From sequence record NC_079184.1: a stretch of 53,998 bases of DNA, one strand, 5' to 3'. The first letter of the stretch is position 1. Every line of letters begins with the position of its first letter. The DNA is from Escherichia phage vB_EcoM_DE15. The notes beneath the pieces were generated by a model. It was not told the DNA's origin and made no database searches. It saw only the letters and a program-made list of their open reading frames with translations. The position numbers and the translations under genes are program-made. This document shows, piece by piece, positions 7,827-16,228 of this stretch.

Positions 7827-7848
7827 ACATTAGTTGAATGTGAATAAC
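7827..7848 (+). promoter_or_regulatory. Phage promoter-like motif ACATTAGTTGAATGTGAATAAC
   Basis: Motif family member 18 nt upstream of next gene. Confidence 0.45.
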
Positions 7849-10808: not shown

Positions 10809-11067
10809 AGAACTGGCTGACCAACTTAAGGCAGCAAAACGAGAGTCTGCAAATCAATCAGAACGCGTTGCAAAACTGAAAGGGCAAGGCTCAACGTCTG
10901 AAGAAATCCAGTTATTTACAGATAATGTCTGGTTTTCAATGAATCGTGCACAATTTATCGAGATTCAGGAAGAACGTCTTACTGAACTGGAGAAGCGTGT
11001 AGAAACACTTGAGAGCTTGCTTGTAACACTGCAAGAAACTCTGGACCAGGAACTGAAAAATGTCTAA
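10798..11067 (+). CDS. Hypothetical coiled-coil protein (89 aa, GTG start)
   Basis: ORF. Confidence 0.4.
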   Translation: MKVEELADQLKAAKRESANQSERVAKLKGQGSTSEEIQLFTDNVWFSMNRAQFIEIQEERLTELEKRVETLESLLVTLQETLDQELKNV

Positions 11068-11476
11068 CGTTAAGCTGGGCCAACGCTCCCTTGACCGACT
11101 CAAGGGTGTAAATCCTTCATTGGTGGCAGTTTTCAAGCGTGCATGTGAAACAATGCCGTTTGATGTAACTGTTCTTGAAGGATTGCGTACTTATGAGCGT
11201 CAACAAGAGCTTTTAAAGCAAGGTGCAACCAAAGTTTCAGTTAGCCGACACATGTCAGGCAACGCCTTAGACCTTGCACCATATCCGATTGACTGGAATG
11301 ACCTCGAACGATTTAAAGTTCTAGCTCATCACATGTTCAAAGCTGCAAAAGAGCTTGGAATTACCATTCGTTGGGGTGGAAACTGGAGCCGTATTGATGA
11401 AAATCAGCCGTATCCACCACTTGCACCAGGTAAGAAGAAGCTGATTGATATGCCGCACTTCGAACTTCCAGCATAA
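11060..11476 (+). CDS. Peptidase M15 family (L-alanyl-D-glutamate / D-Ala-D-Ala peptidase-like) peptidoglycan hydrolase
   Basis: SRHMSGNALDL (SxHxxGxAxD) and DMPHFE zinc-ligand motifs. Confidence 0.7.
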   Translation: MSNVKLGQRSLDRLKGVNPSLVAVFKRACETMPFDVTVLEGLRTYERQQELLKQGATKVSVSRHMSGNALDLAPYPIDWNDLERFKVLAHHMFKAAKELGITIRWGGNWSRIDENQPYPPLAPGKKKLIDMPHFELPA

Positions 11477-11484
11477 CTTCATCA

Positions 11485-12042
11485 ATGGAGAATCCGATGG
11501 AAAACCAAATTACTCAAGCAGTAGAACAACTTAAGTCCTGGCGTAGAGACGAAACCTTATTGGTTCGTTTCTACACAGGCGAAACTAATTCTGAATTTGT
11601 AGATGCGTGGATTGATGGCCTGTCTTGGCGTCACTATGATTTCGACATGCGGGAGTATTTGCATGAAGAATACGGCATTGAATACCCAGAAGCCGGTGCA
11701 TATGACGTAATTGAATCAAATGAAGAGGATGTTACCGAAGTTTGCTTTGCCAATGGACTGTTCAGCATTCGCAGATACGACAAATTCAACGAACTGCTTG
11801 TTGATACTGATTTGGATGTAATTCTTGCAGCATTCCGCAGTGGTGAGATTGATATTTTCACTGTGGATGATTTGAACGACATGTTTATTGCACGTTGCGA
11901 CTCAATTACAGAATATTTGAAGCAAAGTGAGGCACTGGATATTCCAGACCGACTTGCACCATATATTGATTGGGATGCAATCACCAGAGATTATGGAAGT
12001 GACTACATTTTCTCTGAGGGAATATTATTCTTAAATGCGTGA
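11485..12042 (+). CDS. Highly acidic protein, possible ArdA-like anti-restriction DNA mimic
   Basis: VRFYTGETNSEFVDAWIDGLSW resembles the ArdA N-terminal pattern as I recall it; strongly D/E-rich throughout. Confidence 0.35.
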   Translation: MENPMENQITQAVEQLKSWRRDETLLVRFYTGETNSEFVDAWIDGLSWRHYDFDMREYLHEEYGIEYPEAGAYDVIESNEEDVTEVCFANGLFSIRRYDKFNELLVDTDLDVILAAFRSGEIDIFTVDDLNDMFIARCDSITEYLKQSEALDIPDRLAPYIDWDAITRDYGSDYIFSEGILFLNA

Positions 12043-12274
12043 TTTAAATATTGCTGAACTTGAGGCTGGATTGATTGTTCACCACCAGCCTCGAAACACT
12101 TTCTATCGTATTCTTGGGCCTACAAAGATTAAAACTCACTGCGGAAGTTGGGTGGATGGGTTTGCTTACCAAGAAGTGAAGAAGTACGGGGACCATACTT
12201 TCTTAAGTATTGATTCCTCTACTATCTACACACGACCGAAAGAGCTATTTGACTCAGACTGGAAAACACTATAG
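12035..12274 (+). CDS. Hypothetical protein (79 aa)
   Basis: ORF. Confidence 0.4.
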   Translation: MRDLNIAELEAGLIVHHQPRNTFYRILGPTKIKTHCGSWVDGFAYQEVKKYGDHTFLSIDSSTIYTRPKELFDSDWKTL

Positions 12275-12343
12275 TTCCAGGCGGGTTTCTTCGAAGTGCC
12301 AAGCGGGTTTTGTACTCGCATTGGCCTTCGGCTTTAGTCTGAA

Positions 12344-12364
12344 ACATTAGTGGGATTTGATTCT
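12344..12364 (+). promoter_or_regulatory. Phage promoter-like motif (first of three in tandem)
   Basis: ACATTAGTGGGATTTGATTC. Confidence 0.4.
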
Positions 12365-12494
12365 GACCACTTAGGGAAGAAAGGCATTATACACTTATCG
12401 CCAAATGGGTGTCAAGCACTTTCTTCATTTATTTTAATTTATTCTTATTATTCTTTTTGTTTGGAATATTGGAATAATTCTGAAACATTAATTG

Positions 12495-12516
12495 GAATTG
12501 AATTAGTGTAATTCTG
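12495..12516 (+). promoter_or_regulatory. Phage promoter-like motif (second of three)
   Basis: ACATTAATTGGAATTGAATTAG, preceded by a 70-nt AT-rich tract. Confidence 0.4.
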
Positions 12517-12621
12517 TCTGTACTCTTTTCCACTAGCAATTGTAGAGGAAGTCCACTGCAATAAGCGCAGCCTCAAACAACCAAGTCTGGACAACTTGGG
12601 AAGAGAGTACAGCACAAAATC

Positions 12622-12642
12622 ACATTAGTTTGAATTGAAACA
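12622..12642 (+). promoter_or_regulatory. Phage promoter-like motif (third of three)
   Basis: ACATTAGTTTGAATTGAAAC. Confidence 0.4.
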
Positions 12643-12651
12643 ACATCAGAT

Positions 12652-12724
12652 AAGAGCTTTGTAACTAGGTAGTCCGTCTGGTACCAAGACGTGTGAGAAC
12701 GTTCGATTCGTTCTACAAAGCTCT
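12652..12724 (+). other. Structured element: perfect 12-bp stem (AAGAGCTTTGTA / TACAAAGCTCTT) closing two internal hairpins, one T-arm-like (GAACG-TTCGATT-CGTTC)
   Basis: Inverted repeats read directly; located just downstream of third tandem promoter. Confidence 0.35.
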
Positions 12725-13273
12725 TTTCGATGGAATGTTTCCATCATATACATTTATCTTTTAACATAGGCCAAAGGGCCGGAATACTTATCCACAGAAA
12801 GCTATTCACTTGTTATAGGCGATGTATTGGGATGAATTGGAACTAAATAAGCAAGCTGTTAGGGCTGAATAATTAGAGGGTAATGCCTCATGCTTATGTT
12901 AGTCATTCGAAAATAGGTTTGTGCCACAAGCTGCTGGTGCTCCGAGGAAGTCGGACAAACAGGGCTTAGAGTGGCATAATCCGCACAAAACCGCGCCACC
13001 AGCTATGCCAAAGCGGGTGGTTTGGGTGAATGTATTGGGAAGGGTTGCAAAGCCTCTGTGACACGCCTGAGCCGCAAGGCGACGACACTCATGTGATTAG
13101 CGTATCGCACCCTAACGGGAGTAACCCTTCGCCAATGCAGTTATCCAGAATTGACACAAACGGTAGGCAGTGGCCCGATTTTCGGCCTTCCTGCGCTACT
13201 CTGTGGCCTGTTTCCTGGGCCAAAAGATGAGAAGAGAAGTCACAAACACTGAATCGAAAATTGGAGAGTTCCT

Positions 13274-13588
13274 ATGATTCGCAAGCATTCTGCTAAAGTT
13301 TTGACGTTAAGAAGGGTAAGGGTCGGTCTTACAGGTAATGAAGAGGAAACAATACACTTCGTCCTGGTTGGAGGTCTTTGGTACTACAATGGTACTAATG
13401 CCTTTTCCGTGAGAATCTCAGAAAAAGATGGGTTCTGGAAGCACACTTTCGAAGAGATACTAGGCACCAGTGCCAAATACACCCTTGCAGAAATTAAGAA
13501 ATATTTCTATATAGGCCCAAACAAGTCCATGCAAATAGCAATCCGCAAATGGACAACAAACCAACCGATTTACGGAGTTCCATTTTGA
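13274..13588 (+). CDS. Hypothetical protein (104 aa)
   Basis: GGAGAG RBS, ATG start. Confidence 0.45.
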   Translation: MIRKHSAKVLTLRRVRVGLTGNEEETIHFVLVGGLWYYNGTNAFSVRISEKDGFWKHTFEEILGTSAKYTLAEIKKYFYIGPNKSMQIAIRKWTTNQPIYGVPF

Positions 13589-15014: not shown

Positions 15015-16104
15015 GTTGCCGATGGCAAACTTGAGAGACTAAGCTAAATCGATCTGGCATGCACTGGAAGATTTCCGGTGCTGCCTTGAACCCATTCTGA
15101 AAGGAAGAGTGGGCTTCAATGAGCATTCTTGTGATTAGAGTTGGGAGGTAGGCCGATGCCCAAGCTCATGGCCCAGACAAGAGTGTTCATTGAAGTTACT
15201 TCAATATGGATTGTCGCCAAGTTGTGGAAGGACGTGCACACAGATTTAACGAAGAAAAGTAACAGCCTGAGAACTGTGAAAATTTCCCGTTATGTCGTGG
15301 GGAAGTGCACCATAGCTTGGGTTCTTCACGTAGATATTACTCAGATATTTGCGGCTCGCTGAATGTGAGCATCCATATTGAAGTAGTTTTCTGAGTCTTA
15401 CGACGGGCCTAAACTGCCTGAAGTTATTGCGACTGTTTTATTCATTTAAAATAAATGCAAATGATTCTGAAATGCGAGTTGCGGCTTAATTAAATTTAAG
15501 TCCTCTCCGTGGTCTTCCAATCCCACGTAACCAAATTTGGCGCATTGTGGCTTCGAGATGTGATTAATAAATCGGAGCAATAATTAATTTGTATTCTGCG
15601 ATGCAATGCAGGCTTAAGTCCCTCAGTGCGCGTGGGGATGTGACAGAGTACAAACTTAATTATGCAGTTGGATATTTCTAGAGGACGGACGAGCACACTG
15701 GAATGTCTTCAATTGGTTTAGTGTGAGAAGCTATGCCAATATGAAACGTAACTCCTTGGGGAAGTGCTCCTCTGGATTTCCCTCCACACAGGAATCTCAA
15801 GCCTGTGGCAGCGACTTCGAAGCTGCACTGCGTAACCTAAATTCACCCTAAAGTGAGTTGCCCTGAGTATGGAAATAAACTGCTCATAACCGATGGTATC
15901 TACAAAGGTAGATTAAATCAGGTTGCCTGTTGGTACTTGGGTTCAACACCTGCTTGCACTCGCAAAGTAGTGCCTCGTACCTGAGATGAAGTGAGTCGGG
16001 ACCATCAATCCCACGTTATGTCAAAACACAGTAGGCGGCTCACGGATTCTACAAGCCTCGCAGTTCGGGAAAACCTGCGTTATCAAAACCCCCCTCTTTT
16101 ATTT

Positions 16105-16196
16105 GGACGAGTAGCTCAGAAGGTTTGCATTGTGCTCAGTCAGGTAGAGCAATCTGTTCGACAGATGTGTCGTTGGTTCGAATCCAACCTCGTCCA
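16105..16196 (+). tRNA. tRNA-like gene (anticodon loop GUUCGAC, anticodon UCG, Arg) carrying a 20-nt insertion in the D-loop; possibly pseudo-tRNA
   Basis: Acceptor GGACGAG/CTCGTCC, TA at 8-9, D-stem GCTC/GAGC, T-arm GTTGG-TTCGAAT-CCAAC, discriminator A; D-loop 29 nt with duplicated GCTCAG. Confidence 0.4.
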
Positions 16197-16228
16197 CCCA
16201 CTTTAATAATAGCAATACTGGAGTCCTT

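Follow-up and report, generated by a model that had tools for sequence, protein, structure and literature searches.

A divergent ArdA-like candidate anti-restriction protein of Escherichia phage vB_EcoM_DE15, and a conserved gene-free region downstream of it

The described proteins closest to the one analyzed here are those of the ArdA family, for which we take the reference set to be Pfam family PF07275, the structure of Tn916 Orf18 (2W82), the EcoR124I-ArdA complexes (7BTO/7BTR), and the ArdA proteins of plasmids ColIb-P9 and pKM101. ArdA is typically found on a conjugative element, and plasmid ardA is transcribed from plasmid leader-region promoters. Three domains of ArdA were described by McMahon et al. 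(PMC2731889); the first is not needed for anti-restriction, and residues of the anti-restriction and VF motifs build the dimer interface and the core of domains 2 and 3, or are essential (PMC2731889).

Ocr (T7 gp0.3) resembles the protein considered here in being phage-encoded and highly acidic, and in its presumed job as a DNA mimic that blocks Type I restriction-modification (R-M), but it is a 116-aa, all-helical protein that mimics ~24 bp. The small ArdA proteins sArdC and sArdN share homology with ArdA domains (PMC12548430), whereas the full-length phage protein contains all three domains. The ArdB/KlcA proteins have the ‘anti-restriction’ label in common with it but have an unrelated fold and are not DNA mimics. 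Pfam and PDB fold searches with the phage protein gave no match to ArdB/KlcA and no sequence or fold similarity to Ocr.

The DNA analyzed (the window) is the whole 53,998-nucleotide stretch of Escherichia phage vB_EcoM_DE15 (NC_079184.1), a complete or near-complete genome of Carltongylesvirus (Chaseviridae, Cleopatravirinae) in which all genes are on the + strand. The open reading frame listing and translation of the window place a 185-aa ORF at exactly 11485-12042 (+), and Escherichia phages vB_EcoM_JL1, ST32, and SA91KD match the 2.5-kb stretch around it at 94-95% identity. Homologues of this gene, at 30-97% identity, occur in 49 phage records, and their lengths are mostly 181-182 aa, with the first residue at the equivalent of Met5. 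Features read at the 5' end of the gene are as follows.

11485..12042 (+): acidic ArdA-family ORF of 185 aa plus stop, which matches PHROG 14321, ‘anti-restriction protein’, at E 8e-52.
11487..11490 (+): Shine-Dalgarno sequence GGAG, 6 nt before ATG 11497, read from the sequence.
11497..12042 (+): likelier true coding sequence, 181 aa, from the second ATG.

Because GGAG precedes ATG 11497, inspection of the sequence upstream of ATG 11485 revealed nothing resembling a Shine-Dalgarno site, and most homologues have 181-182 residues, the start codon is probably ATG 11497, which would put the annotated start 12 nt too far upstream. The ST32 homologue has the same Shine-Dalgarno and start arrangement, GGGAGAAactcaATG. 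The ORF is a genuine gene under selection, since it has homologues in these phage records, a dN/dS of 0.15 relative to SA91KD (purifying selection), and a confident AF2 model (pLDDT 90.7, pTM 0.81). Residue numbers below are those of the 185-aa ORF.

The name ‘(putative) antirestriction protein’ is already given to this gene product in phiEcoM-GJ1 (gp22), ST32, SA91KD, JL1, Mangalitsa, flopper, and others, as well as in PHROGs. The anti-restriction call is correct, ordinary, and known at the level of annotation, so the present analysis contributes a firmer basis for it, in the form of profile, fold, and motif evidence, plus a probable correction of the start codon.

An earlier note, made from the sequence alone, had described the protein as strongly Asp/Glu-rich, and the composition bears this out. 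The protein contains 22 Asp and 20 Glu (22.7%) and 14 Lys plus Arg, for a net charge of -28 and a pI of 4.05, close to the ~165-185 aa, pI of ~4, and net charge of ~-28 of ArdA. Of the 78 non-overlapping ORFs compared on the + strand of the window (mean D+E content 11.2%, sd 4.3%), it is the most acidic by both D+E fraction and net charge. All three of its domains are negative (net charge -12, -6, and -9). Across 34 members of the phage family the net charge ranges from -15 to -29, compared with -23 to -37 in a canonical ArdA set, and acidic character is conserved at 20 of the 42 acidic positions in the 34-member alignment. Acidity is thus a trait of the whole phage family, and it overlaps the canonical ArdA range.

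Sequence comparisons point to ArdA as well, with a strength that depends on the depth of the query. The best Pfam match of the single protein is ArdA (PF07275; 17.7 bits, E 0.0057, residues 101-174), a score below the gathering score of 27 bits. A first homologue search returned mostly close relatives to which no Pfam family is assigned; PF07275 is assigned to two further proteins, at 37-40% identity, and these exceed the gathering score (36.1 and 30.2 bits). Iteration from an alignment brought in another 23, more divergent relatives, and almost all of them have the PF07275 mark. The Pfam ArdA search that the earlier note had proposed as a check therefore falls short of threshold for the protein by itself and succeeds for its relatives; the passes come from proteins of 30-40% identity that were scanned one by one or had a PF07275 mark computed beforehand. 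Within the 34-member alignment, 33 sequences match ArdA at E < 0.01. When the family profile was searched against 1.84 billion representative proteins, 148 matches were obtained, and ArdA was the sole Pfam family in all 10 that were sampled. These 148 matches include canonical full-length ArdA proteins (P0117 and P0150, which score 109 and 135 bits, respectively, against Pfam ArdA). In the same search, many short proteins (68-136 aa) matched no part of the family profile other than its C-terminal domain, which is consistent with their being sArdC-type proteins (PMC12548430).

Profile-profile alignment gave a similar result. When the phage family was aligned by hhalign with 20 canonical ArdA proteins, a set that itself matches PDB 2W82 at E 1.6e-13, the probability was 99.6% (E 1.1e-24, 138 columns). 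The accessory-gene screen of Silas et al. was checked for a phage ArdA of the DE15 type, and its ArdA proved to be a canonical plasmid-type protein, the E. coli plasmid ArdA WP_000129958, which is active against EcoKI and served solely as an independent comparator; the phage-family profile aligned with it at a probability of 90.8% (E 1.2e-6). Domains 2 and 3 alone gave a probability of 99.7% (E 6e-26) vs 1% (E 0.05) for domain 1 alone. Significant sequence similarity to ArdA therefore sits in the C-terminal two thirds of the protein, and the N-terminal domain matches by fold only. The proposal of the earlier note that the protein is ArdA-like is well supported by these searches, but the N-terminal ArdA motif on which it had partly relied is not significant by sequence. 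One N-terminal residue does keep its register, since the invariant W42 falls on ArdA W23 (G-A-W-F; G-x-W-[IF]) in every alignment made.

The predicted structure extends this comparison to the whole protein. In PDB fold searches ArdA (2W82) was the sole significant structural neighbour of the AF2 model, and the model has the three-domain fold of 2W82, namely a beta-rich domain 1, a helical domain 2, and a beta/alpha domain 3, in the order described for ArdA by McMahon et al. (PMC2731889). The earlier note had regarded a lack of both HMM and fold similarity as grounds for abandoning its assignment; similarity to ArdA was found at both levels. The layout of the predicted protein is as follows.

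11494..11535 (+): N-terminal alpha-helix, aa 4-17, from DSSP on the AF2 model; particular to this phage subfamily and absent from 2W82.
11545..11724 (+): domain 1, aa ~21-80, with three strands and short helices, a region that the structural alignments to 2W82 include; R28, D40, W42, and I43 are invariant, and D40-x-W42-I43 is part of a DAWID segment.
11725..11859 (+): domain 2, aa ~81-125, a helical bundle, from the AF2 model and hhalign.
11860..12039 (+): domain 3, aa ~126-185, strand/helix/strand, the best conserved part, which matches ArdA domain 3 (Pfam match at aa 101-174, C-terminal part of the hhalign alignment, WP_000129958 match).
11929..11991 (+): counterpart of the ArdA ‘anti-restriction motif’ and dimer interface, EALDIPDRLAPYIDWDAITRD, from residue mapping and alignment to 2W82.
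12019..12030 (+): G179-I-L-F182, counterpart of the ArdA ‘VF motif’ strand, from the family alignment and hhalign.

The interface pattern P..L..YID[W/Y]....RD is conserved in the phage protein, in which P154, L157, Y160, I161, D162, W163, R168, and D169 correspond to ArdA P131, L134, Y137, I138, D139, Y140, R145, and D146. The C-terminal G..VF-type strand is likewise shared with ArdA, with L181-F182 aligned on the VF motif; across the 34 family members G179 and F182 are invariant and D162 is nearly so. Against these likenesses stand several differences. The phage protein is merely ~18-20% identical to 2W82, it has the extra N-terminal helix, and its N-domain sequence is not recognizably similar to that of ArdA. 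In addition, the Carltongylesvirus clade has lost ~4 residues from the acidic helix that carries ArdA E122/E123, ahead of the motif, and has gained a 4-residue insertion, EIDI, in domain 2/3; neither change is shared with ArdA or with the more distant relatives of the clade.

Taken with the profile evidence, these features make it very probable that the protein is a divergent, phage-borne member of the ArdA family. The opposing explanation, that its acidity is incidental and that it is an unrelated protein, such as a virion or tail-fibre component or a ‘replication inhibitor’, draws on product names in GenBank and on the single-sequence PDB search, which did not find the ArdA structure and gave only weak matches to archaeal primase PriL. 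The homologue is named ‘tail fiber protein’ in MLP1, PYps23T/3T/4T/16T, and FXie-2024a; the products under the match in Pel53 list a ‘replication inhibitor protein’ and no antirestriction protein, and that name is probably attached to the ArdA-like homologue. Searches of Pfam, PHROGs, NCBIfam, and PADLOC, however, gave no match to a tail-fibre, structural, or replication family (those of NCBIfam and PADLOC returned nothing relevant), and the fold and profile evidence, which points uniquely to ArdA, contradicts both product names. The PriL matches, obtained with a single sequence or a shallow profile, are non-significant (E 0.016-1) and are attributed to chance: a deeper profile ranks 2W82 at the top in their place, and PriL does not appear in the fold searches. 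The gene is, moreover, located among early/middle genes, a long way from the structural module. We consider an unrelated acidic protein highly improbable. As a separate matter, the host given for ‘Staphylococcus phage Pel53’, S. hyicus, looks doubtful, since this phage shares ~89% identity with the coliphages described here.

If the ArdA assignment holds, the function of characterized ArdA proteins offers a model for this one, and it is fairly likely, by that analogy, that the protein works as ArdA does, as a dimeric, carboxylate-studded DNA mimic that fills the HsdS-HsdM2 groove of a Type I enzyme. As in Tn916 and plasmid ArdA, a head-to-head dimer would form through domain 3, and its ribbons of carboxylates would imitate the phosphate backbone of bent B-DNA. 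Such a dimer could occupy the DNA-binding groove of the HsdS-HsdM2 core of an EcoKI-like Type I R-M enzyme of the host, and with the groove occupied, unmodified phage DNA would escape cutting. A literature search for an experimental test of anti-restriction by any Chaseviridae homologue found none.

The position of the gene bears on when such a protein would act. The gene belongs to a group of small early/middle genes in the left arm, with the T7-like RNA polymerase gene on one side and the replication module on the other, and its immediate surroundings contain the following features.

7827..7843 (+): nearest strong upstream promoter-like site for the phage RNA polymerase (RNAP), with 1 mismatch to the phiEcoM-GJ1-type consensus; the homologous site is annotated as a promoter in SA91KD.
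11060..11476 (+): upstream neighbour, an M15 peptidase endolysin (Pfam and PHROG matches).
12035..12274 (+): downstream 79-aa ORF (PHROG 2652), a conserved partner gene whose ATG overlaps the stop codon of the ArdA-like gene (ATGCGTGA).
12293..12339 (+): hairpin region that corresponds to a rho-independent terminator annotated in SA91KD, with coordinates transferred via a gap-free alignment.

The order endolysin, 0-2 small ORFs, ArdA-like gene, 79-100-aa ORF is kept in relatives whose ArdA-like proteins are 27-35% identical to this one. An extra 92-aa ORF (~270-280 bp) lies between the endolysin and ArdA-like genes in ST32 and SA91KD and is absent from the window and JL1; its coordinates are 11,044-11,322 in ST32 and 10998-11276 in L001, and the corresponding gap in the window is between 11476 and 11485. 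In SKA49 the endolysin neighbour bears the name ‘imidazoleglycerol phosphate synthase’.

The phiEcoM-GJ1-type phage promoter consensus has 10 matches in the window vs 0.2 expected, and those nearest to the ArdA-like gene are at 7827 and 8343 upstream and at 12344, 12485, and 12622 downstream. The 7827..7843 site is the probable start, and the hairpin the probable end, of the transcription unit that contains the gene. Because promoter-like sites lie upstream and a terminator-like hairpin lies at 12293-12339, the gene is probably transcribed by the phage T7-like polymerase, in one unit with the SSB and M15 endolysin genes. A scan for sigma-70 promoters around the gene found fewer sites than in shuffled sequence and gave no evidence of early expression by host RNAP. 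This arrangement would make the ArdA-like gene a middle gene and not an immediate-early one, which we see as the main mechanistic difference from T7 ocr, a gene expressed first from the entering genome. It also separates the locus from typical ArdA genes on conjugative elements, since here the gene is in a virulent myophage, under phage-RNAP promoters. Because the gene lies ~11.5 kb from the left end, behind phage-RNAP promoters, beside the endolysin gene, and is not among the first expressed, its product may come too late for the classical protection of incoming DNA.

This timing is one reason to consider that a protein with the ArdA fold and DNA mimicry might have a target other than a Type I R-M enzyme, in the form of a different DNA-binding factor of host defence or of the host in general, for example the BREX methyltransferase PglX/BrxX, a Type III enzyme, nucleoid proteins, or a transcription factor, perhaps together with its 79-aa Tudor-like partner. 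The divergence of the subfamily, its extra N-terminal helix, and the indels near the interface helix could be read in the same way. In addition, DNA mimics are known to hit several targets: Ocr is described as an inhibitor of BREX (PMC7261183), and ArdA proteins are described as altering gene expression (PMC10746416, PMC13300388). Yet all characterized ArdA proteins tested so far inhibit Type I systems (PMC2731889, PMC3969726, PMC10149784), the domains that are sufficient for anti-restriction in ArdA, 2 and 3, are the ones best conserved here, and nothing was found that points to one specific other target, so that a target outside Type I R-M appears unlikely next to inhibition of a Type I enzyme.

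A more elaborate possibility involves the partner gene. The ArdA-like gene is translationally coupled to this conserved 79-aa ORF, whose product has an AF2 model with a Tudor/SH3-like barrel. The ArdA-like protein and its Tudor/DUF1653-like partner might constitute a conserved two-gene counter-defence module which, being expressed from phage-RNAP promoters and not first on entry, would have a target beyond, or besides, classical Type I restriction. Candidate targets of this module would be methyltransferases of the BREX type, decoy systems able to sense a DNA mimic, or, via the partner, host RNA polymerase; we find both the module and these targets doubtful, more so than a change of target for the ArdA-like protein itself.

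The restriction-site content of the window fits inhibition of Type I enzymes, circumstantially. Sites for Type I enzymes occur at roughly chance frequency (EcoKI 4, EcoBI 10, EcoAI 8, EcoR124I 21), and these bipartite sites are not depleted. GATC, in contrast, is found once (at 15051) where ~170-200 are expected. Many of the 6-bp palindromes also have no or almost no occurrences, including AGTACT, TACGTA, CACGTG, CGTACG, and GAGCTC (0 each) and AAGCTT (1 vs 16-26 expected). It is the pattern expected of a phage that escapes Type II systems by lacking their sites and Type I systems by inhibiting them.

If the protein is active, it would help explain how Carltongylesvirus phages plate across strains that differ in their Type I restriction systems, and several of these phages are being assessed as therapeutic or biocontrol agents against pathogenic E. 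coli and Yersinia. Activity would also define a phage-borne ArdA lineage with Type I inhibition, in addition to the ArdA proteins of the papers cited here, which come from plasmids, transposons, and chromosomes.

More discovery value than in the ArdA-like protein resides in the covarying candidate RNA next to it. Directly downstream of the ArdA-like operon, a gene-free stretch of ~1 kb (12275-13273) is better conserved than the flanking genes, with 94-97% identity to SA91KD; in TH23, the segment 12640-13240 is 92.7% identical vs just 60% for the ArdA-like protein. The GC-rich part, ~12640-13240, folds far better than shuffled sequences (z = -6.7 on the + strand and -3.9 on the - strand), and the promoter-like site at 12622-12638 lies just upstream of this candidate RNA of ~600 nt (12640-13240, +).

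Comparative evidence for the RNA comes from an alignment of 11 sequences, which represent four named phage lineages plus one metagenomic contig (Carltongylesvirus, Sabourvirus, Faunusvirus, an Aeromonas phage, and the contig). The alignment supports 118 base pairs in 19 helices, with 91.9% of cells paired. Compensatory double changes were found at 62 pairs; shuffled alignments gave 27 +/- 3.6, with none of 500 as high as 62, and slid controls gave 9-24. The 5' part of the RNA is tRNA-like: it has a T-arm with a covarying stem (GAACG-TTCGATT-CGTTC), and the hairpin that comes next, GATGGAATGTTTCCATC, is invariant. The 12640-13240 RNA matched no Rfam 15 family, even at E <= 1, and ARAGORN made no call on it; in GenBank relatives it is mostly unannotated. 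This region looks like an undescribed large structured RNA, or else the structured leader of the operon that starts at 13274.

Other elements of the gene-free stretch lie to the left of this RNA. Between 12340 and 12640, the three tandem promoter-like sites downstream of the ArdA-like gene flank an AT-rich stretch of 34% GC, and different genera share a conserved block at 12435-12497. The T7 primary replication origin consists of tandem promoters plus an AT-rich region, and the arrangement at 12340-12640 recalls it, by analogy. The stretch also contains a perfect sigma-70 consensus on the - strand (12415..12386; TTGACA, 18 nt, TATAAT; 12/12), with the same sequence in SA91KD; it faces left, antisense to the 3' end of the ArdA-like operon, and every gene of this genome is on the + strand. 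Further to the right, a single tRNA-Leu(CAG) gene lies at 16104-16200 (+), as called by ARAGORN and matched by the Rfam tRNA model at 45 bits.
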